Shown here piece by piece: positions 1,445-60,778 of a stretch of 64,000 nt of DNA (position 1 is its first letter; every line of letters begins with the position of its first letter). Location: the IMG/VR virus record IMGVR_UViG_3300005529_000001, positions 208,882 to 272,881 of that record. One strand, given 5' to 3'. The notes beneath the pieces were generated by a model. It saw only the letters and a list, made by a program, of their open reading frames with translations, was not told the DNA's origin and did not search any database. Made by a program: the position numbers and the translations under genes. The stretch is from a virus.

Positions 1445-1737
1445 TTACACTCGCAGATGGCGGGCTTGGAGCCCCAGACCGAAGTGTCGCTGTATGCGCA
1501 CTCCTTGACTCCTGCATCAGCACACTTCTCAGCGCAAGTGATGCAGAAGCACTCTGACTCAAACTTACAACGTCCAGGTTCCTCCGGAGGCGTCTTGACA
1601 CGACACGAGTGCATCCAATTGTCGCACTCGAGGTTCGGGCTGTTGCAGGTGCCATCCTTGTTGCAAGCGCCACCGAAGTCACCGGGATGGTTTTGACAAC
1701 CAACCAGGAATGCTAACAAGAACAAGATCTTTTTCAT
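1441..1737 (-). CDS. cysteine-rich secreted lipoprotein (98 aa)
   Basis: N-terminal MKKILFLLAFLVGC lipobox-type signal peptide; 16 Cys in the mature part. Confidence 0.6.
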   Translation of the reverse strand: MKKILFLLAFLVGCQNHPGDFGGACNKDGTCNSPNLECDNWMHSCRVKTPPEEPGRCKFESECFCITCAEKCADAGVKECAYSDTSVWGSKPAICECK

Positions 1738-12725: not shown

Positions 12726-14168
12726 CTATTCCGCTCCCTGGGCAGGTGCGTTGACGTCAATCAGTTTTGGCGCAACGTTGAGCTGCTCTTTTTTCATCTC
12801 TTCGAGTTTGGCAAGAATCTGCCGCTTGGACGCTTTTTCATCATCTTCGGACGCTTTCTGGAAGCTCATCACGTTGCCTGAAACAGCGAACTTGCTCCGC
12901 GCCGTATCGATGAGCAGGGGATAGACCAGACCATCTCTGCCAAATCGGTTCTTGGCCACGCACAGGCGTCCCTCTCCAGTCGCCTTCTCGTGCGTCCGCC
13001 GGCTAAGGCTGAGAACAGCATCGGCGACAAACGCCTTGCCATAAGCCTCGCTCATGTTGTTGAGGTCAACAACTTCCTGGCTGCTTCCCTCACGGTTGGA
13101 CTGAGATGCCGTCCAACCTGGGATGTGCTTCTCTTGCAAGAACGATCGAAGTTCTTCGTAGATCAGTTTCAGTTCGTGCCGCAATGAGTCGTACTGACGA
13201 CTAGAACGCATGATGTCAGCGTAGTCAATCAGCAACAACCCAGGCCGGAAACCTCGCAAGTCAAGCCTCTCCATGTGAGCACGGATGGTGTAGATGGTCG
13301 CGGTGTTGGCGGGAAACTCTTTGATCATCAAACGTCCCAGCTTCATGCCCTGGTATGCTTGGATGACCTTGTCTTTGTTCTCGATAACGACGTTGCTGTC
13401 GATGTCGCAAAGATTTGAGTCGTATCTCAACCCGACTGCAGCTTCTGATAATTCTAGCGTGTAGTGAAGGACATCAACTCCCTCCCTGAGAGCCTGGCAA
13501 CCCAACGCCACCAAGAAGTGACTCTTGCCCACACCCGTGGGCGCGACCACCACACCCAGCTCTCCAGCACCGAGCCCGCCTTGGAGGACTTCTTTGCGGT
13601 CTAGCTCTTCGATGCCGGTGGGCACACAGTTCCGCTGGAGACGAGTGAACCTTGACTCGTAGTCAGTGAAAAAATCATGTCCCAGTGACGGGGTGGTGCC
13701 CACCTGCACTGCTTTCTTGATGCCATCAACGATCTCTTCGTACTTGCCGTCTTGGATCTTTTCCGCCGCGACCATCAGCTCCTGTTTCAGAGCTTGCTTG
13801 CGGCAGAAATCGAGTGATTTTTCTTTGACGAATTGCAAATCTCCAGAGTCAGGGTTCGCACGCATCCGCATCAAGTATTCGATGATCTGGTCACGCAACA
13901 GGATGTCGCTACCCTGTTTCAGGTCATCTTTGATGATAGTCACCAGCAGCTGGAATGACGGAAAGACCTTGTATTTCTTGGAGTAATCAAAGTACCTCTC
14001 GCCCAAAAACTGAAGGTACTTGAGATCAAAGTAAGAGACGTCAAACACCTCTCCCATCTGTTCTGCCCACTGACGGTCAGTCAGCAGCGCTTGCATGACC
14101 TTCTCTTGGAAGGGTTTTCCATACTGACCGAAGCTGACGTCAGTCCTGACAGATACGTGCTCAGTCAT
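12726..14168 (-). CDS. DnaB-family replicative helicase (gp41-like)
   Basis: Walker A VVAPTGVGKSHF; start reset to ATG 14168 (ATGA coupling to the upstream stop, SD GGAGACAAGGA). Confidence 0.8.
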   Translation of the reverse strand: MTEHVSVRTDVSFGQYGKPFQEKVMQALLTDRQWAEQMGEVFDVSYFDLKYLQFLGERYFDYSKKYKVFPSFQLLVTIIKDDLKQGSDILLRDQIIEYLMRMRANPDSGDLQFVKEKSLDFCRKQALKQELMVAAEKIQDGKYEEIVDGIKKAVQVGTTPSLGHDFFTDYESRFTRLQRNCVPTGIEELDRKEVLQGGLGAGELGVVVAPTGVGKSHFLVALGCQALREGVDVLHYTLELSEAAVGLRYDSNLCDIDSNVVIENKDKVIQAYQGMKLGRLMIKEFPANTATIYTIRAHMERLDLRGFRPGLLLIDYADIMRSSRQYDSLRHELKLIYEELRSFLQEKHIPGWTASQSNREGSSQEVVDLNNMSEAYGKAFVADAVLSLSRRTHEKATGEGRLCVAKNRFGRDGLVYPLLIDTARSKFAVSGNVMSFQKASEDDEKASKRQILAKLEEMKKEQLNVAPKLIDVNAPAQGAE

Positions 14169-15145
14169 TCCTTGTCTCCAGATGTTTTGTGTTCGATATT
14201 CTCGATGCAATGGAAGGCATAGAAGAAGTCTTCTACGTCAAAGTCTCCGATCCCTTCCTTGGCTAGCTGCTTCATCAGACCCATTCTATCCGCCTTGGGC
14301 AGGAAGTTTTGGATGCGGTGATCGATCTGTTGTTGTTGGTTTGCTGATAGCATGCTACCGTCGAGGTAGACCAAACGCCAGTTACGCCTGACGTCATCTT
14401 CCTGTTCCACAATCTGTTGGAATTTGGGAGAGTCATCGGTGTGGGTGTGAGCGTAGTCGATGACCTGTTGCAACACCACGTCATCATCAATTCCCAAAAA
14501 CGGGAACAGCTTGGCGACCGTCTTGAAACCCACGCCCTTGATGCCCGGGACGTTGTCTCCGTTATCACCACACAGAGCCTTTGCCAACGCAAAATGCTTA
14601 GCTTGCACGCGAAATTCCTCCATGACTGTTTCTTTAGTCACGAAAGTTTTCTTGTGCAAGCTGTAGACCTTGGTCTGGTCGTCGAGTAGCTGATAAAGGT
14701 CCTTGTCCGATGAGACGATGATCTTGTCTTCTGCCCGCATCGGTCCGCGGCATAGGTATGCGACTAAGTCGTCTCCTTCGCAATCAGACACATACAGTTG
14801 ACACACTGGTACGCACCTTGTCATGTGCAACAACGCTTCGATCTGGTATTTCTTGTTATCATCTGAGTCAGGGATATCATCCTCGTAAAAGCGATTCAGC
14901 TTTTCGGGCTTCCGGTTCATCTTGTACTCGCTATACAGACGCCGGCGCTTGGTTGATCCCCCTCCCTCCCAACAGATGTAGACTGCCTTGGGTTGTGACT
15001 CAAAGACAATACGTCGCAACGTTTTCAAGAAACCGATGCAACCTCCCATTTGGTAGCCATGCGCTGACATCGTTGGGTAAGCGCTGTAGCTACGAACAAA
15101 GAGGTTCATCGCGTCAACGATCAGAACCGGACGCGTGGTTGACAT
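14165..15145 (-). CDS. 5'-3' exonuclease / flap endonuclease (RNase H-like)
   Basis: PIN-like N-terminus LIVDAMNLFVRSY; H3TH GDNGDNVPGIKGVGFKTVAKL. Confidence 0.85.
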   Translation of the reverse strand: MSTTRPVLIVDAMNLFVRSYSAYPTMSAHGYQMGGCIGFLKTLRRIVFESQPKAVYICWEGGGSTKRRRLYSEYKMNRKPEKLNRFYEDDIPDSDDNKKYQIEALLHMTRCVPVCQLYVSDCEGDDLVAYLCRGPMRAEDKIIVSSDKDLYQLLDDQTKVYSLHKKTFVTKETVMEEFRVQAKHFALAKALCGDNGDNVPGIKGVGFKTVAKLFPFLGIDDDVVLQQVIDYAHTHTDDSPKFQQIVEQEDDVRRNWRLVYLDGSMLSANQQQQIDHRIQNFLPKADRMGLMKQLAKEGIGDFDVEDFFYAFHCIENIEHKTSGDKE

Positions 15146-15454: not shown

Positions 15455-15852
15455 CGCGTCACTAGCGCTACGTTGCCGTAACAGCTCTCCCACTCTTCTT
15501 TGTTGACCTCGAACTCCATCGCGATCCTGACATCATCATCGCCAACGACATTGTCTTCTACGACTTTAAAGAGCTCAAAGTCAGCGACCATCTTCTGCGA
15601 ATGCGGACGTTTGTCATGACGACGGATCTCAAAATCGTCTTTCGTCTCCGAATAGTCACGCCACATCTGGCTTACGCTCAGCAGCTGGCACACTTTGGGA
15701 GAAGCATGGACGTCACAGTAGCGGATCTTGGTGTTGCGGTTGTATGGGTTCCTCGTCTTGACGTGGTTGATCAACTGTTTGCGACAAGCAACGATCGCCT
15801 CGACGAGCGAGTCAACCTTGGATGAGATCTTCCATGTTTCTCTAGCGTCCAC
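15451..15852 (-). CDS. hypothetical protein
   Basis: ORF; GTG start at 15852 preceded by GGAGG with 4-nt spacing; avoids a 158-nt overlap with the upstream gene. Confidence 0.45.
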   Translation of the reverse strand: MDARETWKISSKVDSLVEAIVACRKQLINHVKTRNPYNRNTKIRYCDVHASPKVCQLLSVSQMWRDYSETKDDFEIRRHDKRPHSQKMVADFELFKVVEDNVVGDDDVRIAMEFEVNKEEWESCYGNVALVTR

Positions 15853-16281: not shown

Positions 16282-16713
16282 CTATCGTACACCGGTCGAG
16301 CCAAAACCTCCAGCCCCTCGCGTCGTCTCCGAAAGCTCATCAACCACGTCGAACTCAGCTTGGACGACAGGAGAGAAGACGAACTGCGCGATGCGCATGC
16401 CCTTCTCGACCTTGAAATCGTTGTCGCTGTGGTTGATCAGCAGGACCTTGTTTTCGCCGCGATAATCGCTATCGATCGTGCCCGGTGAGTTGAGGACAGT
16501 TATCCCAAACTTCGCCGCCAAGCCCGACCGCGGCCTGCACTGGCACTCGTACCCTTCGGGCACCTCAAGAAAAAGTCCCGTCCCAACCATGCAGGTTCCC
16601 CTGGCTGGGACAATGGCTTCTTCTGCCGAACACACGTCGCACCCCGCCGACCCCGGCGTCTGGTAGACTGGGATCGGCACTTCGGGGTGCTTCTGCTTGA
16701 CGCGAACTCTCAC
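16282..16713 (-). CDS. dut: dUTP pyrophosphatase (trimeric dUTPase)
   Basis: Motifs [26 protein letters not shown]. Confidence 0.85.
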
Positions 16714-17999
16714 TCTTCGCCCTCGTCGGTGTCAGGGCTCTCGCCCTCGCCAGATTCCGCTTTCTCACCCGCTTTCGTGGTGTAAGCAGCTTCGATCAGA
16801 CGATCGACGAAAGGTTGGTACTGTGGGCTCGCCATGATCTCGTCGAAGCCACTCTTGGTGAACTTCTTCTCGAGCAAGACCTCTCCCGAGGTCGCGTCTG
16901 AGACCTGGAGCTGCCTCCAAGCTGAAGTGCCGCTGATGCTGCACTCGACCTTGTCGCCCTCTTTTGCTTTTGACTTGGGATCTTCAGCGATGAGAGCGGC
17001 GGCAGCGGCCATCGTCAGGTCCATCGAGACCTTGTTGTTCTCGCAGTACGACCTGACCTCGTCAAAGATGTACTCGTGCTCGACGATCCCCTTGCCGAAG
17101 ATGATGTCGAACTCGTACTTCCTGAACGGTGGGGCAACCTTGTTCTTCTTCACCGTCATGATGACGTGGATGCCGATGATGTTGCCCGCCTTGTCCTTAA
17201 CCTGCGTGCCGCTGGTGAGGCGGATACGGACCGAGGCGTGGTACGGGATGGCTTTGCCTCCCGGTGTTGTCAGCGGGTCACCGTGAGTCACGCCGATGGC
17301 GTCACGGAGCTGGTTGATGCACAGCAACGTGGCGTGGGTCTGGCCAATGACCCCCGTCACCTTCCGCATGGCGCGGCTGATGATGCGGGCCTGGAGACCG
17401 ACAGTGTTGTCGTCATACTCGCCCTCGAGCTCAGCTTTGGGTGAGGATGCTGCAACGCTGTCCCAGATGACGAAGATGGGCCTGTCCTTCGAAGCCGCGA
17501 TTGACTTGGCTTTCAGGACAACGTCTTCGATGATCTTGAAGACCTCTTCAGTGCAGTGGGTGTCGCAGTAGATGAACCGACGGCCGATGTCGACACCCAT
17601 CGATGCCAGCTTGTCAACTGGCGTCGCGTTCTCGGTGTCGATGTAAACGACCAGCCCACCCATCTTCTGGACGATCGCCGCACACGCATATGCGATGTGT
17701 GACTTGCCGATGGATGGCGTTCCTGCAACCTCGATGATGCGTCCTTCTGGGAACCCACCACCCGCCGCGTTTCGGATCGCATAGTCCATCTGGATGCTGC
17801 TGGTTGGTAACCAGCGCTTCACAACCGTGGGAGCTTCGTCTTCGCCCAGGTTGTACGCCACCCTCATGCCGAATTCTTTGTTGATATCCTTGATTAAGGA
17901 CGTGCAGAGCTCATCGAGCTCGTCACGTTCCTTCTTCTTGGATTTCACCTCGGATTCGGCAGCTCTCGTCGCTGCTTTCGCCATGGTGTTTCCTTTCAC
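16710..17999 (-). CDS. uvsX: RecA/UvsX-family recombinase
   Basis: Walker [11 protein letters not shown]; RecA-like core; acidic C-terminal tail. Confidence 0.8.
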
Positions 18000-32346: not shown

Positions 32347-32682
32347 TCACTGGAACCGCCTGAGGCGACTCGGGGACTGGCTTCGCATCCTGCCCTGCAT
32401 TGTCCTGACATCAGGAGCGTTCTGGTGAAGTGCTCGTGACTGTGATGAGCTCCCATTCGGATCGTTCGGGTTGCTCTTGTTCAGTTCGGTGACGATCCTC
32501 TCGATCCACCACCGTTTGATGGGCACGGGGAGGTTGTACGCCTCCCCCGCTGTCATCCCACCGTAGTAGACCAACAGGAAGCACGGCTCCCAGATCAGCT
32601 GTTCTTTATCGCTGGGCTGCAGGCCAAAGAAAGTTGACCCCGATTGGCATCGAGACCTCCTCTTCGTGACCACAAGACGCAC
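32347..32682 (-). CDS. ORF in the +1 frame, overlapping the end of 32606..33493 (independent GTG-start gene or frameshift extension)
   Basis: No ATG; 77-nt overlap with the upstream gene. Confidence 0.3.
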   Translation of the reverse strand: MRLVVTKRRSRCQSGSTFFGLQPSDKEQLIWEPCFLLVYYGGMTAGEAYNLPVPIKRWWIERIVTELNKSNPNDPNGSSSQSRALHQNAPDVRTMQGRMRSQSPSRLRRFQ

Positions 32683-33493
32683 ACGTCACTTCCTGGCGCA
32701 TGATCATTCCTGGCTCATTGTCACGAATGTAGTTTCGCAAAGCCAGAGAGTCACGAGCGGGCATCATGCGGACGAACGCCGCGATCTTGGCTCGGTCTTC
32801 GATGTTATCGACAGACTGGATGCAGTGAAGCAGGTTTGATGTCACTGACGTCTCGTTCTGAGACAGCGCCAGCTTCTTCTGCTTCTCCTGCAAGGCAGTG
32901 ATCTGCTCTTCGTCACGGCCCGTCAAGAACTTGAAGCGGACGGTCTTCTTGCTCATGGGCAGCTGGAACTCAAACAGGTTCATCCCCTCTTGCACGGGGG
33001 CGATGCTCAGTCGCTTGATCGGCAGCTGGGCGAGGTTGAACGCTCTGGGTCCCTTCGTCTCGCACTCACCGCACTCGAGCTCCGCGTCATAATCAGCGCC
33101 GTACATGGTGATGCGGATCGCGACCATCAACGCATAGCGATCGCCGATGACCATGTCAATCGGATCGATCGCTTTGTTGACAAGGCACGACTTGATCAGC
33201 TCGGTGATGACCGTCCCCTTCTTCAGGAGGGCTCGGCTCGTCAAGATGTCTTCTTCACGAGCGGTACCAGCCCGGATCTCAACGAGCTCAACGCCGTGTA
33301 GCGGGTGGTTGGGCGGGTAGACGCGGCCTGCAGACGGCAACGGGACCGTCTCAACCGGGATCTCGATGCCGAAGTCCGCCTTGAACTTCTCAGCCTGCGA
33401 GAGAGCCTGGACGCCCGCTTGGACTGCGCCCGGGGGCGGTGCTTGTGTTGATGCAGAAAAGACTTGGTTACGCTGCTCGCGTTCCTCAGACAT
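32606..33493 (-). CDS. zinc-ribbon protein (295 aa)
   Basis: CGECE...CASCGH Cys pairs; SD GGAGCG. Confidence 0.55.
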   Translation of the reverse strand: MSEEREQRNQVFSASTQAPPPGAVQAGVQALSQAEKFKADFGIEIPVETVPLPSAGRVYPPNHPLHGVELVEIRAGTAREEDILTSRALLKKGTVITELIKSCLVNKAIDPIDMVIGDRYALMVAIRITMYGADYDAELECGECETKGPRAFNLAQLPIKRLSIAPVQEGMNLFEFQLPMSKKTVRFKFLTGRDEEQITALQEKQKKLALSQNETSVTSNLLHCIQSVDNIEDRAKIAAFVRMMPARDSLALRNYIRDNEPGMIMRQEVTCASCGHEEEVSMPIGVNFLWPAAQR

Positions 33494-35697: not shown

Positions 35698-38600
35698 TCA
35701 CCCCTGTTGCGAGATGTTGTTCGTCACAACGAAGTCCAACGAGACGTACTCGAGCGACTTGGTGGGCTGGACGAAGATCTTCCCGCGGATGGTGTTGTTC
35801 TCGATGTCGAGCTGCGTCGTTGTCGAGGAGTCGATGACGACCTTGAAACGCTGCAGGCCAGCCTGGGCCTGGATCTTCTGCAAGACGGGGGTGACCGCCG
35901 CAGAGAACCGAGCCAGGGTTGCGTCACGGTTCTGCTCGAACAGGATGGTGTTGGCAATGTCACGGACCTGGCGACGGATCTCGATCAGGAGGCGCCGCAC
36001 GTTGACACGGTCAAGGGCCGAAGCAGCTTGCTGGAGCGTCTTCTGTCCCCAGACCACCACGCCACCCTTCGGGTTGGTGCCGCCCGAAGCGTTGCCCGGG
36101 AAGGCGACCAACGGGTTGACGTTGGCGTCGTAAAGGGCGTCCATGTTGGTCTTCGACAGCTTGACACGAGCCTCGAGGGTCGTCTGCAACGCACCACGAG
36201 TGAAGCCTGCGGGAGCGAACCATGGGTGACCGACCGCGTCGTTGAGAGCGAGAGCGCCCAGGACGGCGACAGACGGGGGAGCAACGACGTTGTTGCCCGT
36301 GTTCGGATCGGGCATCACGACGTCTGGGAAGTACGCTGCACCGAAGCTGCTGTTCACTGACCGCAGCAGGAAGTTCTGCAGCGTGTATGTCACGCTGGGC
36401 AGCTGCGTGTCGGTGGTGACCAGCTGGTCGTTGTTATCATACTGGTCGATGTCCATCAAGAACATGCAATCAAAGCGCTGTTCACAAGCCGCCAATGCTG
36501 CGTCAGTGACGACCGGGTGCCTGATGCCGGGAACGGCGAGCAACATGATGTCCACGTTCGTGGTGTCGCTCATGATGTTGAGGCCAGCGTTGTAAGCTGA
36601 CACTGTCGATCCGAGGTTGAAACCACGGTTCGATGCATTCATGTCATCTTCAACGGCGGTGTTCGTCAGCTGGCGCTGGTCGGGATCAAACAGGTTGGTC
36701 CCATCGAAACCTCCCTGGACCATGAACGTCCACTTGAGGAAGCGCCTGTTGGCCTGGACGAAGTCGCTCGGCAACAGCGCACGGGTTGCAGCGGAGTTGT
36801 TCGTTGCAATGTTCCCGTTGCGGACATAGACTGCGTTCACCCACTGTGTCGGGTCGGCGATGCCAGCCGAGCTGGTGACGACCTGGATGTTCAGCAAGCT
36901 GAAGGCGTTGAAGTTGAACCTGTCGGCGTCCATGATGGCGCCGTTGACGGTGGGTGCTCCGGGCTTGCCACCGTTCTCATACCCAATGCGGACGTTCTGC
37001 GCATCGGTGCGGAACTCGGGCAAGAACTTTGCAAAAGCATGCATTGACTGGTTTGCCAGCGTGCTCAAGTTCGGGGTTGACACACTAGCAACGTGCTCAA
37101 ACTGCATGCCCCAGTACAGCAAGGGGTTGACCTGCAGCTTGGCGCCAGAGCCCTGCGTGATGTTCTGCCGCAGCGGGACCGGCGGCTCGATGACTTGGCT
37201 TGCCCAGGTGGTGCTGTTCAGCGCGATCTCGCTAGAGCTACCGCTGATCAACGAGTTTGCAGGCTGTGCCAGGCAACCGCCAGCTGTCACCAAGTGATGG
37301 ATGCCACGAAGACCGACAGGCAACACCGTCGGATCGACCTGGCCGAGGTCAGTTGACGTATCCATCTCGATGCGGATGTAGTTCGAAGCGTTCGGGTACT
37401 GGCCATCAACGACCAGCTTCTGTGCGGTCGGTCCACGGTCAAAGTCAAAGAACGCGTGGGCGTCACCGATGACAGCAGCGATGTACCGTGAGTCGCTTGG
37501 GTTCAGCGTCAGGCCGCGGAACTGCTCGAGGTAGACGGGTGCTCCGTCGGTGTCACCCCACTGGCGGACGACCAGGTCAAAGGTGCCGTACTGGTTCAAC
37601 GGATCGGTCGAGAGCGCGATGTTCTCGATGCTGATCTTGTAAAGCCTGCTAACGTTGAAGCCGTCATCAAGGGCGTGGACGCGGAACAGGTTGTGGGGCT
37701 TGCCGCCGAACGGTTGTGAGACAACCCACGGTGACGTTGCGTGCTCAAACCGGTCACGGAAGTCCTCATAGTCGGGGACGGTCGATGAACCGTTGTCATA
37801 CTGCAACGAGCTGGTCAAGATGAACGCTGCAAACTCAGCGCCCGGAACGTTTGCAGACGCTGCGCCGGCGCCGAACGAGGAGCTGACGAGACCCGATCCG
37901 GTGACCACTGCCTGCGCAGGGTGGATATCATAGTGGCTGTAGAGGTAGTGACCTGCCTGTTGCAGGTTGTCAGGGTTGGTGTTCAGGACGTTCGCAAAGT
38001 AGTTTGGCGACGTCATGTCGAACGACGCGGTGATCACGTTCGGGAACAGTGGGTTCGTTCCCATGAGACCGTTAAGGAAGAGGACGAAGTCTTGCTTGGC
38101 GATCGACCCAGCGAACAACGTCACGTCACCGATGCTTGCACCGTTGTTGTCAGTCGCTACTGCAGTTGCAGGCGGAGCAACGTTGGTCTGCGCTCCCGTG
38201 AGCGGGAACGAAGCTGACAGCGTCAGGATGACGCCTGAGGCGGCCATGATCATGCCGCGGACGATCGGGACACACGAACCGGACGTTGACGTTGTCTGGA
38301 TGCCCGCAGACGAGAAGAACGTTGAGCCGGCCGACTCGGACATGAAAGCGCCCAAGAAGTACGTACGACCCGACAGGTAGCTGGTCCGGCCTGGTTGGAC
38401 GGGAGTTGCTCCCGTCGATGACGTCGGGTTAGCATAAGGGTTTGGGCTCAGCTGACCATTGTTGTTGGGATCAGGTTCCTTTTCGCCGACTGTCCAGCCT
38501 GCGCCTGTCACGCCACCTGTTGCACTGTTGGGACCCGAGGGTTGGCTAGCGAGACCCTGCCGTGCTTGTCCCTGGCCAACGCCGAGCACCCTGACGTAGG

Positions 38601-38844
38601 TCAGCGCTTGCGCGTTGCGGAGCCACTCTGTCACCGCAAGCGGGCCAAACTTCCGGCCATCAGTCTGACCAAACTTTCCATAGAAGTCGTTGACCAGACC
38701 AACAGTGACAGGAACGAATGCTGGGCCCTTCAAAGAAGTGCCAACAACGCCTGCTGGGGTGCCTGTCGGGGTGATCGCTAGCGGTTGAGAGAGATCGATC
38801 TCTGTCGTCGATACTCCTGGCGCGCCGAACTTGAGCTGTGACAT
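35698..38844 (-). CDS. tail sheath protein, copy 1 (1048 aa)
   Basis: N-terminus GVSTTEIDLSQP...GTSLKGPAFVPVTVG sheath-like; paralog of 38954..42142; C-terminus FVQPTKSLEYVSLDFVVTNN. Confidence 0.8.
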   Translation of the reverse strand: MSQLKFGAPGVSTTEIDLSQPLAITPTGTPAGVVGTSLKGPAFVPVTVGLVNDFYGKFGQTDGRKFGPLAVTEWLRNAQALTYVRVLGVGQGQARQGLASQPSGPNSATGGVTGAGWTVGEKEPDPNNNGQLSPNPYANPTSSTGATPVQPGRTSYLSGRTYFLGAFMSESAGSTFFSSAGIQTTSTSGSCVPIVRGMIMAASGVILTLSASFPLTGAQTNVAPPATAVATDNNGASIGDVTLFAGSIAKQDFVLFLNGLMGTNPLFPNVITASFDMTSPNYFANVLNTNPDNLQQAGHYLYSHYDIHPAQAVVTGSGLVSSSFGAGAASANVPGAEFAAFILTSSLQYDNGSSTVPDYEDFRDRFEHATSPWVVSQPFGGKPHNLFRVHALDDGFNVSRLYKISIENIALSTDPLNQYGTFDLVVRQWGDTDGAPVYLEQFRGLTLNPSDSRYIAAVIGDAHAFFDFDRGPTAQKLVVDGQYPNASNYIRIEMDTSTDLGQVDPTVLPVGLRGIHHLVTAGGCLAQPANSLISGSSSEIALNSTTWASQVIEPPVPLRQNITQGSGAKLQVNPLLYWGMQFEHVASVSTPNLSTLANQSMHAFAKFLPEFRTDAQNVRIGYENGGKPGAPTVNGAIMDADRFNFNAFSLLNIQVVTSSAGIADPTQWVNAVYVRNGNIATNNSAATRALLPSDFVQANRRFLKWTFMVQGGFDGTNLFDPDQRQLTNTAVEDDMNASNRGFNLGSTVSAYNAGLNIMSDTTNVDIMLLAVPGIRHPVVTDAALAACEQRFDCMFLMDIDQYDNNDQLVTTDTQLPSVTYTLQNFLLRSVNSSFGAAYFPDVVMPDPNTGNNVVAPPSVAVLGALALNDAVGHPWFAPAGFTRGALQTTLEARVKLSKTNMDALYDANVNPLVAFPGNASGGTNPKGGVVVWGQKTLQQAASALDRVNVRRLLIEIRRQVRDIANTILFEQNRDATLARFSAAVTPVLQKIQAQAGLQRFKVVIDSSTTTQLDIENNTIRGKIFVQPTKSLEYVSLDFVVTNNISQQG

Positions 38845-38953: not shown

Positions 38954-41900
38954 TCACACGAACTGGACGCCGCTGTTCGTGATGATGAAGTCAACTGCGA
39001 TGAACTCAACCACGCGGGTCGGGACCACGACGATCCGACCGTTCATCTTGTACTGGTCAACGTCAGCTTGCGAGTTGTTGGTCGAGTTGCAGATGACCTG
39101 GAAGGCTTCGATGCCTGCCTGGGTCTGGATCAGTCCCAGTTGCAACACTGCCTGTGCAGTGAACTTGTTCTGGGTGTCGGGCGTGTTCTGCTCGAACTCC
39201 AGTTGCAGAGCGATGTTGCTGATGATGCGCTTGACCTCCAGCAACAGACGCCTAACGTTGACCCGGTCAAGAGCCGAGGGCTTGGCTTGCAGTGTCTTCT
39301 GGCCGAAGATGACGAATCCCTGTCGTGGGAACGTTGCGATCGGGTTGATGCGGCTAGAGTACAGCGTGTCCCGGTCGCTCGAGTTGAGACGCACGCCCAC
39401 GTTGACAACGAAGTCGAGCGCTGCGCGGTTGAAGCCCGCAGGAGCGAACCATGGGTAACCGATCTTGTCGTTGAAGCCCAGGGCTCCCAACGCTGCGATC
39501 GAAGCGGGCACCTTGACACGACGGTTGTTGACCACGTCCTGGATGAAGACATCCGGGAAGTAGGTTCCCATGTAGTTGTTGTCGATAGCACGGGTGTTGA
39601 GACCGACGCTGGTCTGACCCACGTCTGCACGGACCGCGCTACCGTTTGCCCCGATGGTGGTCGAGTACAATCTGTTCTGTAGCTCGTCATAGTTTACCAG
39701 GTCCATGACGTAGAAGGCCAAGCCGTAGTCACGGACATGGCTTCCCGCGTAATCCGTCAGGAAGGGCTCTCGGATGCCCGGCATCGCCAGGATGTTGTGG
39801 TTGACCTGCATCGGGTCAGTCATGATGGTGAGGGCCGTGACGTACGAGGAGACGTTGGAGTTGCTCTGGCCCGTTCCGTTCATGTTGGCAGCAAACCCAG
39901 GCGGGATGAAGCCCGGGAACGCACCGCCAGTATCACCCAACAGGTTCGAATCGAACGACGTTGACTTGTCGTTCATGCGGCTAGCGTCAGGATCCAAGAA
40001 GTTGACACCGTCCCAGCCGCCGGCCAAGAAGGTCGAGAACTTCAGGTAAGGAGCAAAGCGGTTGAACTGCTGTGCTGTTCCCTTGGCGAGCAAGGTTGCC
40101 AGGGTGACACGCCGGCTTGCCGTCTTCTGGTTGTTGAGCTCGACCGGATCGATGTAAACGTACGTCGCGCCATCCAGCACGCCGTTTCTGATGTAAGCTG
40201 CTTCACGCATGTGACCGTCGATCGACGCCGTCAAGCCGCTGAGGCTCGTCCCATCAAAGACGTCGGTGAAGTCGTTCGAAAGAGCAACCTTGGCCAGCGT
40301 GAACTTGTTGTCACAGAACTGGTCTGCGCCTGCCCCGGTGACGAACGTGTCCAAGCCAGAGCAACCCAGGAACTGGGTGTAAGAGCTGATGCAGTTGTTT
40401 GCCACCGTCTCAACGTTCGGGTTGAGTGGGATGTCGAGACGCTCGAACTGGACGCCCCAGTACAACGGCGGGTAAGAGATCTCGGTGGGAGCGGGGTTGC
40501 CGAACCAGGACGTTGACGTCGGGCGGTTTCCCTTGGTCACCTTGGTGCGGAACGGAACTGGGGGCAAGACCGAACCAGTCAACGCGTTTGCGCTGCCCGA
40601 GGTCACGCCATACAGACGAGTGAAAGCTGCCTGGAGAGCGTTGCTTGCACCTGCCGACAGGACGCCGTTTGACGCACCATCAGTCAAGCTATCGTTGGTC
40701 TTCAACAGTGCCGCGCCGCGGAAACCGAAGGGCAAGCACTGCGGCGGCACTCGAGCCTGGTCAACTGCGTCAGTTGGGATGACGCGGATGTAAGCAGACT
40801 GGTTCTGGTACTTGCCACGTGACACGACACGTTGCTCGGTGCTGATCGTTGCATCAAAGTTGTAGTAGACCTTGCGATCGCCGATCACGTTAGCGATGTA
40901 GTTTGCAGCCGTCGGGTCAAGGCTCAGGTTGTTGAACTGCTCCAGGACGTTCGGGTTGATGTCGGTGTCATCCCAGCTGCGGACCTGCAACGCAAAGGTT
41001 CCGTACTTGTAGCTGTCAACGGTCGATGCTTGCAGGTTGACGATGCTGATCTTGAAGAGGTTGTTGGCGTACTGGCCGTCATCGAGCGCTTCGACACGGA
41101 ACAGGTCGTACTCCACCTTGCCAAAGGGCTGGCTGATGAACTTCGTCGTCGTTGGGGTCTGGTAACGGGCGTCAAACGCTCCGTACGAGGCCCGGTACGT
41201 CGTGTTGTCGTTATAGGGGGCACCCGTGAACGAGAGGTCCGCGTTGTTCTGGCTGCTGTTTGTCGAGCCGATCAGGACACCCGCGATGTTTGCCGTAGCG
41301 ATCTGATCATCAACGGCGAAATCAGCGTAAAGAACGTGTTGCGATGCAACGAGGCTGTCCGGGTTGCTGTTCAGCAGCTTGGCAAAGTAGTTCTTGTCAT
41401 CGGGATCGAAAGATGCAGTCAGGATCTTGCAACCCGGGTTGCCATCATCGTTTGCAAACGAAGTGCCCAACGTTGAGCTGATGATCAGCTTGAAGAAGCC
41501 GCTTGGGCTGGTTGGCGATGTCCCCTGCATGACACCGAAGTCCTGCAGTGAGTCGATCTTGCCTTTGACCGAGAAGTCGTTGTTTCCGTCTGCGACGCAC
41601 AGGCGAGCGCCCGAGGCCATCAGGACCATGCCCCTGATCAGGTGCGCGGTGCCACCCGAGAAGCTGTCGTTGTCGGTGAAGATCGCGGGACCCAGGATCT
41701 CGTTGCCCTGGACCAGGTGTTGGGCGACCAAGAACTGCACTGCGCCCGTGAAACGGCTGCCTGAGACGTCAGAGATTGAGACTGCTGTCCCGTTCAGGTG
41801 GAACCCGGCGTTGACAGTGCGACCCGTTGCCGTGGTTCGTGAGATGTCAGTGCCCGTTGCATTGGCACCCGCGCCCAAGACCCTAAGGTAAGTCAGGGCT

Positions 41901-42142
41901 TGGCGGTTTGCCAAGAAGTAGTAGGCGGCGTAAGGGCCGAAGCGGTTGGGGTCCAGGGTGCCGAAGACGGCATTGAACTGGTCGAAGTTGCCGACAGTGA
42001 CAGGCACGAAGGCCGGGCCACGGTTCGACGTCCCGATCACACCGGCGGGGACTCCGACCGGCCCCTGTGGGGCGGGAGCGGAGAGATCGATCTCTCGCTG
42101 GTAGAAATTGGGGGACAGAAAAGTCTGCAGCTGCTGCGGCAT
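38954..42142 (-). CDS. tail sheath protein, copy 2 (1062 aa)
   Basis: N-terminus REIDLSAPAPQGPVGVPAGVIGTSNRGPAFVPVTVG; C-terminus RIVVVPTRVVEFIAVDFIITNSG; SD AGGAG. Confidence 0.8.
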   Translation of the reverse strand: MPQQLQTFLSPNFYQREIDLSAPAPQGPVGVPAGVIGTSNRGPAFVPVTVGNFDQFNAVFGTLDPNRFGPYAAYYFLANRQALTYLRVLGAGANATGTDISRTTATGRTVNAGFHLNGTAVSISDVSGSRFTGAVQFLVAQHLVQGNEILGPAIFTDNDSFSGGTAHLIRGMVLMASGARLCVADGNNDFSVKGKIDSLQDFGVMQGTSPTSPSGFFKLIISSTLGTSFANDDGNPGCKILTASFDPDDKNYFAKLLNSNPDSLVASQHVLYADFAVDDQIATANIAGVLIGSTNSSQNNADLSFTGAPYNDNTTYRASYGAFDARYQTPTTTKFISQPFGKVEYDLFRVEALDDGQYANNLFKISIVNLQASTVDSYKYGTFALQVRSWDDTDINPNVLEQFNNLSLDPTAANYIANVIGDRKVYYNFDATISTEQRVVSRGKYQNQSAYIRVIPTDAVDQARVPPQCLPFGFRGAALLKTNDSLTDGASNGVLSAGASNALQAAFTRLYGVTSGSANALTGSVLPPVPFRTKVTKGNRPTSTSWFGNPAPTEISYPPLYWGVQFERLDIPLNPNVETVANNCISSYTQFLGCSGLDTFVTGAGADQFCDNKFTLAKVALSNDFTDVFDGTSLSGLTASIDGHMREAAYIRNGVLDGATYVYIDPVELNNQKTASRRVTLATLLAKGTAQQFNRFAPYLKFSTFLAGGWDGVNFLDPDASRMNDKSTSFDSNLLGDTGGAFPGFIPPGFAANMNGTGQSNSNVSSYVTALTIMTDPMQVNHNILAMPGIREPFLTDYAGSHVRDYGLAFYVMDLVNYDELQNRLYSTTIGANGSAVRADVGQTSVGLNTRAIDNNYMGTYFPDVFIQDVVNNRRVKVPASIAALGALGFNDKIGYPWFAPAGFNRAALDFVVNVGVRLNSSDRDTLYSSRINPIATFPRQGFVIFGQKTLQAKPSALDRVNVRRLLLEVKRIISNIALQLEFEQNTPDTQNKFTAQAVLQLGLIQTQAGIEAFQVICNSTNNSQADVDQYKMNGRIVVVPTRVVEFIAVDFIITNSGVQFV

Positions 42143-42177: not shown

Positions 42178-42186
42178 GTAAGTACC
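42178..42186 (-). promoter_or_regulatory. TAAGTAC box upstream of sheath gene 2, inside CTATAGCG...CGCTATAG inverted repeat
   Basis: Same motif family. Confidence 0.25.
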
Positions 42187-55385: not shown

Positions 55386-55560
55386 CCCTTGAGAATTTGC
55401 CTGCCCTCGGTCAGGGCTTCGTTGGCTTGCGTGAGCTCCTTGCGGCGAGCGACAAGCTGCTCGCGGAGCGTGACAACGTTGCGAGACCCAGACGGCTCAG
55501 AAGCGATCTTGGTCTCGAGCTCACTGATCTCGGTGAGCAGCTGTTCAGTACGTGCTGACA
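55381..55560 (-). CDS. small coiled-coil protein (59 aa; below the ORF-track cutoff)
   Basis: Hand translation MSARTEQLLTEISELETKIASEPSG...; TGATG coupling to the downstream gene; SD AAGGTAGG. Confidence 0.3.
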
Positions 55561-55627
55561 TGAGAGAATCCTACCTTATCGTGAGGTAGGTATCCACCCA
55601 CGCACAAAAACATCACACGTGGGCCCC

Positions 55628-55951
55628 TCAGGGCAGGAAAACCACCACCGAGACTGAGTCGGTGAGGTTGTGCAGCTGGCTCATCAGCCTGTTGTGCTCC
55701 CAAGCGTGCGGCTCTTCGCTCATGCAACCAAAATAGAGGAGGTTCCTGGCGGGAGTGTCGTGCTTGTCGTTAAAGCTGTCAGCGAAGTTGGCCAACACCA
55801 AGCACGTCATGTCATCGTCGATGCCGAAGCGGACGACCATCCCAGGCTCGACCTCGCCCACTGGGATGCGAGGCTCGCCAACGCCGTTGGCCCCGACGAC
55901 GTGGAACCTACTCGGCAGCCCAGCTCTTCCGGACAAAGCCGCTGACGACAT
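55628..55951 (-). CDS. hypothetical protein (107 aa)
   Basis: ORF. Confidence 0.4.
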   Translation of the reverse strand: MSSAALSGRAGLPSRFHVVGANGVGEPRIPVGEVEPGMVVRFGIDDDMTCLVLANFADSFNDKHDTPARNLLYFGCMSEEPHAWEHNRLMSQLHNLTDSVSVVVFLP

Positions 55952-56198
55952 CGACCATCACCTTGGGACCCGTGTTGAGCACCACGCCCGTCCTGGGAAC
56001 CCCATCATGCTTGTTGACTTGCAACGAGAAACCCGCGGACTTTGTCACCACAAAGGCCTGCGCCAGCAACATCCCGTTCACTTCTTGTGCAACCCGCATC
56101 GCAAGCGCACGTCCGTCGAGGCGGCTGCCGTTTGGGCGCCTGCGCTCTGTCCTATCGTTCTTCATGTGTCCATCTCCGTGCGATGCATCTGATCGCAA
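55908..56198 (-). CDS. hypothetical protein (96 aa)
   Basis: ORF; overlaps the next gene by 44 nt. Confidence 0.35.
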   Translation of the reverse strand: MRSDASHGDGHMKNDRTERRRPNGSRLDGRALAMRVAQEVNGMLLAQAFVVTKSAGFSLQVNKHDGVPRTGVVLNTGPKVMVDVVSGFVRKSWAAE

Positions 56199-56204
56199 CT
56201 GGGA

Positions 56205-56576
56205 TCGGTGGAAGCGCCGGGAATCGAACCCGGGTCCGCAACTGCTAACCGTCTACGTCTACATGCTTGTCCCTTCTGGGTGTTCATCCTCGGGCGGGAC
56301 TATCCGGTGGAACTTTTACGACCAACACCGTCACGGTCGGCACTACGTTTTACGCCCAGCGCTTTGGCGTTTTTGCATCCAGGTAGCTGGGTGCGCCCCC
56401 ACGCATTCTGTTGCTAGGCCGCGTGGTGCCCCAGACGATCAGGCCGCGAGGCGGACGTCGTCAGCGAAGCCGTTGTCGTTGGCGTTCATTCGTCACTGAG
56501 GTTTTTAGACCGGACCTTGGTGCCACCGGTGCATGCAGCAAACAGTCTCACGATCACGTCGAAACCTGTCGCCCCC
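56205..56576 (-). ncRNA. ssrA: tmRNA (ssrA), one-piece, tag peptide ANDNGFADDVRLAA
   Basis: 5' GGGGGCGACAGGTTTCGAC; 3' CCGGGTTCGATTCCCGG-CGCTTCC-ACC (T-arm, acceptor, discriminator); GCATGC and TAAAAA conserved elements; in-frame tag GCC AAC GAC AAC GGC TTC GCT GAC GAC GTC CGC CTC GCG GCC TGA. Confidence 0.85.
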
Positions 56577-56670
56577 AAATCATTGGGTGTGCTTGCTAGT
56601 GCTGGGTTGTCAATGAACAACGGTTGTTACAACCGTCAAGACTGTATCTACCCCACCCAGGGACCGTTTT

Positions 56671-57083
56671 TCACCGCTTGTTGCCGCGGAACTTCCGGCT
56701 TGATGGTGCCGGGCCCTTTCGGGGATAGTTGTCGGGCAACATGTCAGTGTCTTCGGCAGACATGATGACAGGAATCGTTTCACGGTTGTCTTCGACAACT
56801 TGATCACCCGGTCCCTTGAGCTTGGCCGAGGTCTCAACATCGTGTTGGCCAAGCTTGCGTCGCTGGCCCTCAAGCCAGGAGTCAAGCGGGTCAACCATCT
56901 TGTTTCCCAAGCTAGCGACAACGATCGACTTGACCCGGTTGTAGATCTGGCGAAGCTGCTCGTCAGTCGTCGCCCGCGGGTCACCCTCTATGTACTCTTT
57001 CTCAAATGGATGCTGGATCTCATACCTCTCGTAGAGGACGTTGTAGAGAGCCAACAGCTCCTTGGCATTGATGTTCAGCTTCA
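56671..57083 (-). CDS. hypothetical protein (137 aa from the internal ATG)
   Basis: MKLNINAKELLALYNV...; ATGA coupling with the upstream 61-aa ORF. Confidence 0.45.
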
Positions 57084-57266
57084 TGTCTCTTCTGCTTCTT
57101 GTTTCGCCTTGATGGCAGCCTCGAGCTTGGCTTGTTTCTCCGCTGCGAGTGCAGCCGGGAGCCGACGACGCCAGGTCGCAGCCTTCTCCTTGGACCGTGC
57201 GTTGAACCGCGTACGTTTTGCCTGCAACCGTCGGCGCTGGACAGACGTTGTTGTGGGTTTTCTCAT
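57081..57266 (-). CDS. small basic protein (61 aa)
   Basis: ORF. Confidence 0.35.
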   Translation of the reverse strand: MRKPTTTSVQRRRLQAKRTRFNARSKEKAATWRRRLPAALAAEKQAKLEAAIKAKQEAEET

Positions 57267-57285
57267 GTCGGCTCCCGGACACTCT

Positions 57286-57600
57286 TCAGAACGCAGGTGA
57301 CAGCGAGGGCGTCTCGGTGTTCTGGAAGTGCCGGCTCAGGGCGATGAACAGCGTCCTGGCTTCACGCCCGCTGAGGCGCAGCGTCTCGCCCTTGCGGAAC
57401 CCACGCTCGCGGCCGTCACGGTCAAAGAAGACCTGCGTCTTCCCCGTGACAGGGTTCGTTGAGACTGCGATGTCAAACTCGCCATCGTCCCGGCGAGCCG
57501 TCTCGGTCCGGATCTTCCCGGTGCGGTCAACGCGGGTGATGATGTGAGCGTTCTTGTTGGTGTCAGGATTCCTCTTCTTGCCCATGATCTGTGTCTCCAA
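57286..57600 (-). CDS. hypothetical protein (104 aa)
   Basis: ORF. Confidence 0.45.
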   Translation of the reverse strand: METQIMGKKRNPDTNKNAHIITRVDRTGKIRTETARRDDGEFDIAVSTNPVTGKTQVFFDRDGRERGFRKGETLRLSGREARTLFIALSRHFQNTETPSLSPAF

Positions 57601-58855: not shown

Positions 58856-60778
58856 TCAGATGATGTTGAGGTCCATGACCGTGACGGTTCCGTAGAAGTC
58901 GCTACGAACGACCTTCTTGCCGTACCGGGTCATGACGCCCTTACGAGGTGTGAAATCCTCAGGGGCGAAGATCGTCGGAGTCACGATGAGGGGGACGTAC
59001 GGTGAGTACACGTACCCAGTCTCGAGGTAGCTGCCGCCCTTGTACCCGACGAGGATGCGGTTCCTCGGGAAGTACGGGTCCTTGTAGACCGTGAAGCGGT
59101 TGCTCAGGGTGCCGATCGCCTCTGCACCGATGGTGAAGGGCGAACCGACCTGACCCTCGCCGTCGATCGAGAACTTCGGCTTGTAGAGGACCGAGGCCTC
59201 GAGGATGGTGGCGACATCCGGGCTGGTGACCATGAAGTTGGCCGAGCCGCGGAGCGTCTTGCGGTGGATGGTGTTGGCAACGTCGATGATGGTCTCGACC
59301 AGGGTCTCGTACCACTCACGAACCGTACCAGTGAACTGCGGACCGATGCTGAGCGAGGTGTTCAGCGTGACCGGTTGGCCCGTCAGCTTGTTGACGAACT
59401 TGCCCGGAGCGCGGCTCCAGTACATGTTGGCGCCGTTGGCCTGGGTCACGAGGTCGTTCAGGATCTCGCGGTCAATCTCGAGAGCGATCTGCTCGCTCAG
59501 GATGCTGGTCAGCTCGACCTCTGCGTCCATCGAGTGGTACGCGTTGAGGTCCTGTGCCAGCTCAGGGCTCCACCGGGCGCGCAGCTTGCGCGTGGTGGCG
59601 GTGATTGCGATCGACTCGATCTTGATGTCGATCTCTGGGATCGCCGGGGTCGGGTTGACGTTGAAGTCAGACTCGAACGATGGGATCGTCAGCGTTGCAC
59701 CAGCGGTGCTGTCGACAGTCAGTGAGTCAGCGATTGCCATCGATGCAACGATCTGGCCGGAACCCGAGAGGACCAGCTGAGGACCAGCACCGTTGACAGC
59801 GACTGCGAAGACCAGCTGGACCTGTGTGCCGTTGAGCGGAGCAGGCGTGAAGGTCGTGCCGTTGAAGTTACCGCGCTTGTTCAGGCGGCGCAGGTTGAGG
59901 ACGCCGTTACCTGACTGGTAAGACTGGCCCCAAGCGAACGTGCCACCGAGACCGGCGCCCGTTGACTGGAAGTTGAAGACCGCGAGCTGCTCGATGGCGA
60001 GGAAGTCACCGTTCGGGATCGCCGTCGTGATCGCCGAGACGTCAAGGTGACCGAACTGGATCCACTCGGAACCGTTCTGGAGATCAACCTCGAGCTGGGG
60101 ATCGAAGTTCAGGAAGCGAGCGTTGGTGCCCGAGAAGTCCGTCGAGGACTTGACGAAGTTACCAACAACGAAGGCTCCGTTGGTGCCGTTGAAGGCTCCG
60201 AAGTTCAGCATCGAACCTGAGACAGAACCGGAGGCGTGCACCTTGGTGTAGCCCACGTTGACCAGGTCGTAGAAACCGCCCGTTGCGAGCGATCCCGACT
60301 GGATGCCCTTGCCGGTTGGGTTGTTGTAGATCGACTGGCCGGAACCGTAGGTCGCTGCGCTTGCACCGCCTGGCTGGTTCAGCTGCAGACCTGACTGGCC
60401 ACCGACGTTGCTGCCGTAGGTGTAGTCAAGGTAGAAGATCAGGCCCGAGGGGAGCGACATCGGCTGGATCGAGACGAGCTCGTTGGCGACGAGGCCACCG
60501 AAGACACGACGGACGATCGGGAAGGCGATGTTGGTGAAGCCCTGGATCTGACCCGAGGAAGCAACGTTCGCGCCGCCCGTGGACAGCGAGTTGCCGACTT
60601 CCTTCAGGACCTGAGCTGCCTGGTTCTCCAGGAGCTGGGCCATCGTCTCGCGCTTGTGACCGTCAAGGCCGCGGAGCAAGCCAGTGCGGCTCCACTTCTC
60701 GACCAGGCGGGCACGCTCGGCGCCGACGTGCCGCTCGCGGATGCCAGCGGCTAGTTGTTCCATTGTAAAGAACTTCAT
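58856..60778 (-). CDS. major capsid protein, T4 gp23-like
   Basis: RKLRARWSPELAQDLNAYHSMDAEVELTSILSEQIALEIDREI aligns to T4 gp23 SRQLKAAYSIELAQDLRAVHGMDADAELSGILATEIMLEINREV; C-terminus YVYSPYVPL...TRYG; SD GGAGAG. Confidence 0.9.
   Translation of the reverse strand: MKFFTMEQLAAGIRERHVGAERARLVEKWSRTGLLRGLDGHKRETMAQLLENQAAQVLKEVGNSLSTGGANVASSGQIQGFTNIAFPIVRRVFGGLVANELVSIQPMSLPSGLIFYLDYTYGSNVGGQSGLQLNQPGGASAATYGSGQSIYNNPTGKGIQSGSLATGGFYDLVNVGYTKVHASGSVSGSMLNFGAFNGTNGAFVVGNFVKSSTDFSGTNARFLNFDPQLEVDLQNGSEWIQFGHLDVSAITTAIPNGDFLAIEQLAVFNFQSTGAGLGGTFAWGQSYQSGNGVLNLRRLNKRGNFNGTTFTPAPLNGTQVQLVFAVAVNGAGPQLVLSGSGQIVASMAIADSLTVDSTAGATLTIPSFESDFNVNPTPAIPEIDIKIESIAITATTRKLRARWSPELAQDLNAYHSMDAEVELTSILSEQIALEIDREILNDLVTQANGANMYWSRAPGKFVNKLTGQPVTLNTSLSIGPQFTGTVREWYETLVETIIDVANTIHRKTLRGSANFMVTSPDVATILEASVLYKPKFSIDGEGQVGSPFTIGAEAIGTLSNRFTVYKDPYFPRNRILVGYKGGSYLETGYVYSPYVPLIVTPTIFAPEDFTPRKGVMTRYGKKVVRSDFYGTVTVMDLNII

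Follow-up and report, generated by a model that had tools for sequence, protein, structure and literature searches.

Phages are known to carry transfer-messenger RNA (tmRNA) genes. Examples are eight mycobacteriophages, Bacillus phage G and DS6A (PMC4131195), the huge phages of Al-Shayeb et al. 2020, which carry both tmRNAs and SmpB (PMC7162821), and Bradyrhizobium elkanii phages (PMC12656738); pelagiphage-like phages are a further reported group. Such genes occur in 402 of 18,146 phage genomes (2.3%; 133 unique tmRNAs, 53 two-piece) (PMC9004378), and phage G has been re-annotated (PMC12484599). The role proposed for phage tmRNAs is to support or manipulate translation in the host (PMC4131195, PMC7162821, PMC9004378, PMC12656738, PMC12484599). 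Here we describe a tmRNA (ssrA) gene on the minus strand of a 64,000-nt stretch of viral DNA, hereafter called the window (positions 208,882 to 272,881 of IMG/VR record IMGVR_UViG_3300005529_000001, a metagenome contig of 369,506 bp). We consider it likely, from the conservation of the RNA and of its genomic position, that this gene encodes a functional one-piece tmRNA of a ~370-kb jumbo myovirus, vertically inherited in a large clade of such phages.

The known phage tmRNAs (the mycobacteriophage Bxz1 group, phage G, the huge phages, Melnitz and the B. elkanii phages) are complete ssrA genes of lytic phages with often large genomes, and the window gene resembles them in being a complete ssrA in a large phage genome. 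The tmRNAs of the type found in the OM43 phage Melnitz are two-piece and carry a glutamine riboswitch, unlike the one-piece gene in the window, and the phage G tag, AKLNITNNELQVA, differs from the window tag. tmRNA genes in phages, huge phages included, are already on record, and the current understanding of them is unchanged. Unlike the earlier phage tmRNAs, however, the window gene is conserved and syntenic in a large uncultivated clade and has its own upstream box. What it adds is evidence of selection at the level of a family, together with the conserved genomic position and the box.

A complete one-piece tmRNA gene

ARAGORN called a tmRNA at 56207-56576 (-), with the tag ANDNGFADDVRLAA*, as the sole RNA gene in the window. 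Rfam cmscan placed RF00023 at 56206-56576 (-) at 87 bits, where 47 is the gathering score (E 2.1e-32). This match covers model positions 1-374 of 374 and is not truncated, and no other Rfam family reached its gathering score within the 64 kb. Because of the Rfam E-value and the conservation with covariation in 21 other phage loci, the tmRNA match is far beyond chance. An initial annotation, made from the sequence alone, had proposed a complete, non-permuted, one-piece tmRNA on the minus strand and had named ARAGORN and a covariance model as checks; both recover the gene, and Rfam does so over its full model. The annotated span, 56205-56576, was right in locus and strand, while its 3′ end is 1-2 nt longer than the tool calls. 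The gene and the parts of its tRNA-like domain are as follows.

56206-56576 (-), tmRNA (ssrA) gene, one-piece, ~370 nt; ARAGORN and full-length Rfam RF00023
56570-56576 (-), 5′ strand of the acceptor stem, GGGGGCG, RNA positions 1-7, including G3 of the G3:U70 alanine identity pair; from the sequence
56558-56566 (-), D-loop analogue GGUUUCGAC, RNA positions 11-19; near-invariant alignment columns, in agreement with the Rfam consensus
56207-56233 (-), T-arm CCGGG-UUCGAUU-CCCGG, 3′ strand of the acceptor stem CGCUUCC, discriminator A and CC; from the sequence

By direct reading, the 5′ end is GGGGGCG-ACAGG-UUUCGAC, and the acceptor stem (GGGGGCG/CGCUUCC) has 7 bp, including G3:U and G4:U. The stem is followed by discriminator A, an encoded CC and then a G. 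The window copy thus has a tRNA-like domain whose T-arm carries a loop of the GTTCRANYC type, and the two parts of the alanine identity set, G3:U70 and A73, are both found. The 5′ end, T-arm, 7-bp acceptor with two G-U pairs, discriminator A and CC that the initial annotation had described are all read in the sequence, and its internal frame, with a tag ending in AA before TGA, is the one that ARAGORN reports.

The RNA resembles E. coli SsrA and RF00023 in its acceptor stem with G3:U70, A73, GGUUCGAUUCC T-arm, UUCGAC D-analogue, long P2 helix and first pseudoknot (PK1), as well as in its alanine resume codon, ANDxxxxxLAA-type tag and further pseudoknots. It differs from E. coli SsrA in its tag, which has 14 codons instead of 10 and contains a charged DDVR insert, in encoding CC only, in having UGA in place of UAG just before the resume codon, and in the PK2-PK4 region, where an extra hairpin is present and two pseudoknot-like units stand at the place of PK4.

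The order of the gene is standard, with the 5′ acceptor strand followed by the tag and then by the T-arm and 3′ acceptor strand, and ARAGORN, Rfam and the sequence agree that it is non-permuted. Three other assignments were rejected. For the two-piece permuted alphaproteobacterial tmRNA (RF01849), RF00023 is the best clan member and ARAGORN flags no permutation. For an attP-type ssrA fragment, the window gene is full length with its own 5′ half, and no integrase domain occurs in the scanned open reading frames (ORFs). For a mini-tmRNA consisting only of the tRNA-like domain, as in mycobacteriophage DS6A, the tag frame and pseudoknots are present and conserved here.

Conservation, synteny and inheritance

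IMG/VR contains 599 or more relatives of the capsid protein encoded upstream of the tmRNA; the loci of 80 of them, with identities of 68-90%, were examined. The set of tmRNA homologs was assembled from ARAGORN calls and from an nhmmer profile built from those calls. A homologous tmRNA was found in 22 related IMG/VR loci, always on the capsid strand and 1.5-5.4 kb downstream of the capsid gene. The conserved order is g706, major capsid protein (MCP), (g153), g104, (g203), tmRNA, (g96), ..., methyltransferase. The tmRNA is present wherever capsid identity is 75% or higher and sufficient DNA past the capsid gene is available. More distant loci are mixed: some carry it, and about 20 are without one within 10 kb of downstream DNA; in six related loci that have g104 and no tmRNA call, Rfam finds no RNA family in the examined DNA.

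A scan of IMG/VR for the motif GTGACG-N7-ANDNG returned 32 contigs, including ones of 200, 278, 309 and 340 kb, all of which carry the same RNA family. On the 278-kb contig (IMGVR_UViG_3300044641_009805, which holds loci L053 and L119), the tmRNA lies elsewhere on the contig and not within 10 kb past the capsid gene. Because the motif scan found this tmRNA, the gene is evidently farther from the capsid gene in some genomes. Overall, about 36 distinct tmRNA sequences were collected. Loci L050, L051 and L053 have a tRNA-Glu(UUC) gene at 15540-15612 (-), on the strand opposite to the capsid gene and ~3.6 kb past it.

Pairwise tmRNA identity tracks MCP identity (Spearman 0.71, 231 pairs) among loci that range from 39 to 63% G+C. 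Such co-divergence is expected if the tmRNA has been passed down vertically within the phage lineage, and not if it had been captured repeatedly from hosts. A blastn search (distant mode) of the tmRNA against 50,697 INPHARED phage records gave no match, and thus no cultured relative with a similar RNA was found among them.

The DNA directly downstream of the tmRNA varies in some loci. In L015 and L020, the place of g96 immediately after the tmRNA is taken by ORFs of 240-251 amino acids whose N-terminus is GIY-YIG-like (…YIGQ..NP..R…H…), which suggests insertion of a homing endonuclease at that spot. A different ORF, of 249 amino acids, directly follows the tmRNA in L058.

Covariation of the RNA fold

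The structure was laid out from the window sequence and tested on a plain MAFFT alignment of 22 sequences, with two controls: sliding the 3′ partners by 1-3 columns, and 500 column shuffles. The elements are as follows.

56531-56558 (-), helix P2, 5′ strand, RNA positions 19-46; covariation
56237-56266 (-), helix P2, 3′ strand, RNA positions 311-340; partner of 56531-56558
56499-56530 (-), pseudoknot PK1, RNA positions 47-78 (stem a 47-51/64-68, stem b 60-62/76-78); covariation
56434-56462 (-), candidate helix 5 over the end of the tag and the stop codon, RNA positions 115-143; weakly supported
56399-56433 (-), pseudoknot PK2, RNA positions 144-178; covariation in stem b
56340-56370 (-), pseudoknot PK3, RNA positions 207-237; covariation
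56271-56339 (-), two pseudoknot-like elements at the place of PK4, RNA positions 238-272 and 277-306; covariation, details provisional

Standard pairs occupy 80.5% of the pair cells, compared with 32-44% when the partners are slid, and 63 of the 82 pairs show changes on both sides. No measure attained its observed value in any of the 500 column shuffles. For the acceptor stem, where the alignment has a register shift, a separate count was made. This stem is fully paired in 21 of the 22 sequences, with discriminator A in 21, and G3:U70 is kept in 20 despite compensatory changes at acceptor positions 2, 4, 5 and 6. The T-stem is 95.5% paired, and all five of its pairs have changed on both sides.

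P2 is long and closes the ring of downstream pseudoknots. Its P2a part is 98.5% paired, with five of six pairs changed on both sides, and P2d is 95.5% paired, whereas the middle (P2b/c) is 66% paired on the MAFFT alignment and is poorly supported, partly from length variation. PK1, which lies between P2 and the resume codon as expected of a tmRNA, is 97.2% paired in stem a and 95.5% in stem b, with changes on both sides at 7/8 pairs. Stem b of PK2 (151-157/172-178) is 80% paired and all seven pairs have changed on both sides; its stem a (GGG/CCU) is near-invariant, which places it outside the reach of covariation. PK3 is 86-91% paired in stem a and 76% in stem b, with compensatory changes in nine of ten pairs, and the helices of the PK4 region are 69-90% paired, most pairs being changed on both sides. 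Helix 5 can form in the window through GACGA/UCGUC and CCGC/GCGG pairs; on the MAFFT alignment it is 53-63% paired, a low value because the tag varies in length.

The tRNA-like domain has drifted in part of the clade. Thirteen related tmRNAs have the D-loop linker AAAUAG in place of A(C/A)AGG, and all 13 have a GGCAG-type T-loop (GGCAGUA in 12, GGCAGCG in L144) and not UUCGAUU. It seems that the D-loop and T-loop co-vary at their tertiary contact. The sub-clade comprises L015:15610-15976, L018:15234-15604, L078:12032-12407, L119, L126, L128, L140-L144, L146 and L147, and its genes escape ARAGORN. Other odd T-loops occur in L038 (UGCAAU), L014 (AUCAUUC) and L004 (an 8-nt loop).

The tag reading frame

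The position of the tag frame is as follows.

56439-56483 (-), tag frame GCC...GCC TGA, encoding ANDNGFADDVRLAA*; ARAGORN, open in 22/22 homologs

The resume codon GCC begins at RNA position 94, the stop codon TGA occupies positions 136-138, and the frame reads GCC AAC GAC AAC GGC UUC GCU GAC GAC GUC CGC CUC GCG GCC UGA. In all 22 homologs, the frame is open over 13-15 codons from the aligned resume codon. The tags begin with ANDN in every homolog and end in AA in 20 and in VA in two; the stop codon is UGA in 18, UAA in two and UAG in two. Between the conserved ANDN and the terminal AA, the tags differ widely within the clade. At the four ANDN codons, the eight first and second positions are invariant columns and all four third positions vary. 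Variation confined to third positions marks these codons as selected for the peptide that they encode. Taken together, the fold, the alanine identity and the tag frame are under purifying selection in the phage lineage.

Cellular tmRNAs and the host question

The initial annotation had also read the tag as a hint of an alphaproteobacterial host. The likeness itself holds: the Caulobacter crescentus tag, AANDNFAEEFAVAA, shares with the phage tag the pattern ANDN-(G)-F-A-acidic-acidic-hydrophobic-x-hydrophobic-AA (PMC1233412). On the other hand, the Caulobacter tmRNA gene is circularly permuted and yields two RNA pieces, according to Keiler et al. 2000 as cited in PMC9004378, whereas the phage gene is not permuted. 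The tmRNAs of Alphaproteobacteria are two-piece. Cellular genomes were scanned for TTCGAC-N60-90-ANDNG[FILV]A, with one genome per species for 185,579 species. Of the 35 matches, six are real tmRNAs, all of them one-piece, all from Myxococcota metagenome-assembled genomes and all with tags of the form ANDNG[IL]ALAA. An alphaproteobacterial host is thus not established, because the phage gene is non-permuted and the tag scan recovers one-piece Myxococcota tmRNAs only.

The Myxococcota tmRNAs (Polyangiales, Sandaracinaceae and Kofleriaceae) are one-piece like the phage tmRNA, share its tag start ANDNG[I/L]A and have the same acceptor stem as the phage, GGGGGCG/CGCCUCC. They align to the phage profile over their full length with 56-72 bits, while E. 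coli ssrA aligns at its ends only, with 33 bits. In a comparison that covered the Myxococcota tmRNAs and E. coli ssrA, the former are ~50% identical to the phage tmRNA and the latter ~46%. Their tags have 10 residues and are without the 3-5-residue insert of the phage tags (13-15 residues). A specific Myxococcota origin of the phage tmRNA was not accepted on the ~50% versus ~46% identity, which makes it a lead and not an established origin. The tag-motif scan and the profile comparison found no near-identical cellular tmRNA. The tag does not identify the host. As the clade spans 39-63% G+C, its hosts are probably diverse.

Genome context

Nearly all long ORFs in the window are tightly packed on the minus strand. 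The neighbouring and other assigned genes are as follows; where no strand is given, the coordinates alone are listed.

58856-60778 (-), major head protein, gp23-type (phrog_138; Pfam Gp23 in public gene calls), 2.3 kb upstream of the tmRNA
55908-56165 (-), g96, 85 amino acids with an Arg-rich N-terminus, starting 40 nt past the tmRNA; listed for context, no functional link shown
38954-42142 and 35698-38844 (-), two adjacent tail-sheath paralogs, ~1050 amino acids each (phrog_23, E 7e-48 and 3e-56, respectively)
32606-33493, T4 baseplate protein
16710-17999 (-), RecA (PF00154, E 7e-61)
16282-16713, dUTPase
14165-15145, 5′-3′ exonuclease
12726-14210, DnaB-like helicase
10132-12642, ribonucleotide reductase
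7941-8912, ThyX
7289-7915, thymidylate kinase
6675-7292, MT-A70 methyltransferase
1737-2729 (-), T4-type polynucleotide kinase-phosphatase (PNKP; PF25109 HAD_PNKP, E 4.5e-40, plus a P-loop kinase domain)

A complete ssrA gene thus lies within a phage genome, with virion and replication genes on both sides. It sits inside the structural-gene region of an uncultivated jumbo myovirus and not at a prophage-host junction. The claim that the tmRNA is phage-encoded holds, since phage genes stand on both sides and the same RNA occupies the same position in related viral contigs. The flanks had been described as accessory genes; the neighbours are instead small conserved ORFs within the structural-gene region and no obvious accessory genes. 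Pfam and PHROGs gave no match for the neighbours g203, g104, g96 and g107. The g96 protein has a predicted CI-2/eglin-like (protease-inhibitor-like) fold and directly follows the tmRNA in ~16 loci; a search of its profile against PDB sequences gave no match. The protein encoded 40 nt past the tmRNA occurs with 100% identity on a single ENA metagenome contig, that of 369,506 bp (ERZ27279688, k141_1055159). No integrase was seen among the ORFs scanned in the window.

Thousands of close relatives of the RecA protein (62-85% identity for the 120 listed) occur on metagenome contigs as long as 361 kb, and this points to a very large phage clade. The window RecA is of the bacterial type and not a UvsX-like recombinase. 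The capsid protein is only 30-50% identical to those of deposited phages, the best matches being Microcystis phage Mel-JY01, Flavobacterium 'immuto' phages and two uncultured huge phages (484 and 595 kb). Both tail-sheath paralogs far exceed the typical size of a sheath protein. T4 Pnk is an RNA-repair enzyme that counters a tRNA-cleaving defence; no RNA ligase was seen beside the PNKP gene in the window.

Upstream and downstream signals

Two elements flank the tmRNA gene on its strand.

56601-56616 (-), conserved upstream box TCATTGACAACCCAGC, with TTGACA at -37 to -32 of the mature 5′ end; candidate dedicated promoter element
56179-56197 (-), hairpin UGCGAU-N7-AUCGCA, 9 nt past the 3′ end; weakly supported, possible processing or termination signal

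In 17 of 36 distinct loci, a copy of the box motif TC(C/T/A)TTGA(C/A)A ends between 20 and 40 nt before the mature 5′ end; in random windows the rate is 1.8%. The motif is usually followed by CCTAGC, and the combined motif occurs once only in the 64 kb. The distance between box and gene fits a -35 element with a transcript start at or near G1. A sigma-32-like reading of the box (CTTGAAA ... CCCCAT) was rejected, as the spacing from TTGACA to the CCCAA-like part varies from 10 to 19 nt among loci. In AT-rich relatives, the tmRNA begins 4-10 nt past the stop codon of the upstream ORF, which suggests co-transcription and RNase P processing there. Of the 22 loci, about eight have a stable hairpin after the tmRNA; the mean z is -1.36, and the signal in the window, at z -1.2, is modest.

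Another motif, GGTGGTA(C/G)(T/A)TA, has two copies in the window, at 56644-56652 (-) and 42178-42186 (-), both intergenic and in the orientation of the genes; the first lies ~70 nt before the tmRNA, the second upstream of a tail sheath gene. Similar motifs occur upstream of the tmRNA in L011, L014, L020, L026, L027, L035 and L132. The motif may be a phage-specific promoter; two copies in the window are fewer than expected by chance overall.

Discussion

We propose that the gene works as a tmRNA during infection. It would be transcribed from its own TTGACA-containing box or by read-through from genes of the capsid region. Host RNase P would cut the 5′ end, and the 3′ end would be trimmed and then completed by the host CCA-adding enzyme, which would be needed because the gene encodes CC only. 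After charging with alanine by host AlaRS, host SmpB and EF-Tu would deliver the tmRNA to ribosomes stalled on truncated or non-stop mRNAs. Translation would resume at GCC and append (A)ANDNGFADDVRLAA, whose C-terminal LAA would mark the product for degradation by a ClpXP-type protease. The steps of processing, charging, delivery and tagging are drawn from established knowledge of trans-translation, and the dependence on host SmpB is assumed. The benefit would be that ribosomes are kept available while host and phage mRNAs are cut, perhaps towards the end of a prolonged jumbo-phage infection or once RNA-cleaving defences are triggered, with the phage tmRNA supplementing or replacing that of the host. 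The T4-type PNKP in the same window is consistent with a setting of RNA-destructive infection or RNA-cleaving defence.

Several observations weigh against this proposal. A stop triplet (UAG, UAA or UGA) stands at -5 to -3 of the resume codon in 15 of 22 phage tmRNAs, and five have CAG. The window (56484-56490 (-)) has UGA where most homologs have UAG, so that a G replaces the A corresponding to E. coli A86, a residue that we take to be important. The final A of CCA is unencoded in the window gene, which has ACC and then G, while the full CCA is encoded in 9 of the 22 homologs; an encoded CCA is missing from many bacterial tRNA and tmRNA genes too. The structure of the PK2-PK4 region is partly resolved, with low Rfam posterior probabilities, and its exact topology is provisional. 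No SmpB was found among ~50 ORFs of at least 140 amino acids scanned in the window. A scan of 55500-57400 for sigma-70 promoters and intrinsic terminators found none on the tmRNA strand beside the gene, and the upstream box has no recognisable -10 element. Finally, the tmRNA is dispensable in part of the wider group, because some related loci with g104 are without it.

Other explanations concern what the RNA does. The phage tmRNA could compete with the host tmRNA to add a phage-specific, longer and charged tag (DDVR before LAA) and so alter what becomes of tagged proteins, for instance if the tag evades host adaptors and proteases or redirects them; the adjacent CI-2/eglin-like g96 might act together with it. 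The wide variation in the middle of the tag between the fixed ANDN and AA, the tag length (13-15 residues, whereas Myxococcota genes with the same ANDNG[IL]A start encode 10) and the small protein with a protease-inhibitor-like predicted fold directly after the tmRNA in ~16 loci would all suit such reprogramming. We regard it as unlikely, and it is better seen as a variant of the proposed function than as an alternative to it. Along similar lines, the promoter box, tmRNA and g96 might together form a phage module that takes over ribosome rescue and proteolysis in the host, which we find quite unlikely. If it were true, stalled products would receive the longer tag of the phage, and g96 would modulate a host protease or bind the tmRNA or ribosome. 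Such a module could counter RNA-cleaving abortive-infection defences, and a T4-type PNKP is encoded in the same genome. A quite different possibility is that the RNA is mainly a decoy that titrates host SmpB, AlaRS or EF-Tu and inhibits host trans-translation, as proposed for the DS6A RNA, which consists only of the tRNA-like domain; Hudson et al. 2014 note that a molecule of this kind inhibits tmRNA strongly (PMC4131195). The sub-clade with a non-canonical T-loop would fit a decoy. However, a decoy would not need a tag frame, PK1 and downstream pseudoknots, all of which are conserved with compensatory changes, and the tRNA-like domain of the window copy is fully canonical. We therefore hold this to be very unlikely.

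The remaining explanations concern where the gene belongs. Integration often takes place at ssrA, and prophages contain fragments of it (PMC9004378, PMC12656738). The gene might accordingly be a copy of the attP type, or a host ssrA captured recently, and play no part in the phage. Such a passenger is highly improbable here: the gene is full length rather than a 3′ fragment, no integrase was seen among the scanned ORFs, a near-identical cellular tmRNA was not found, and the fixed position, the co-divergence with the capsid gene across loci of 39-63% G+C and the strong covariation all speak against it. It is equally hard to believe that the window is bacterial chromosome and the tmRNA the host's own gene beside a prophage, a reading favoured by nothing but the general fact that prophages integrate at ssrA. 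Virion and replication genes flank the tmRNA on both sides and on the same strand through the whole 64 kb, the source contig of 369.5 kb is similar to relatives of 340-361 kb, and the arrangement from capsid gene to tmRNA recurs in dozens of IMG/VR viral contigs.

If the gene is a functional, inherited phage tmRNA, as we propose, it would imply that ribosome stalling limits large phages during infection and that trans-translation is therefore a point of virus-host conflict. The tag is also a test case for tag-based host prediction, in which the likeness to Caulobacter and the Myxococcota scan point to different lineages. The GGCAGUA T-loop sub-clade bears on how far a tRNA-like domain can drift while presumably still working with host AlaRS and SmpB. 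With ~36 sequences that show covariation, a fixed position and an upstream box, this family would be a good system for understanding the role of phage tmRNAs, be it a top-up of the host supply, a change in the fate of tagged proteins or a counter to RNA-targeting defence.

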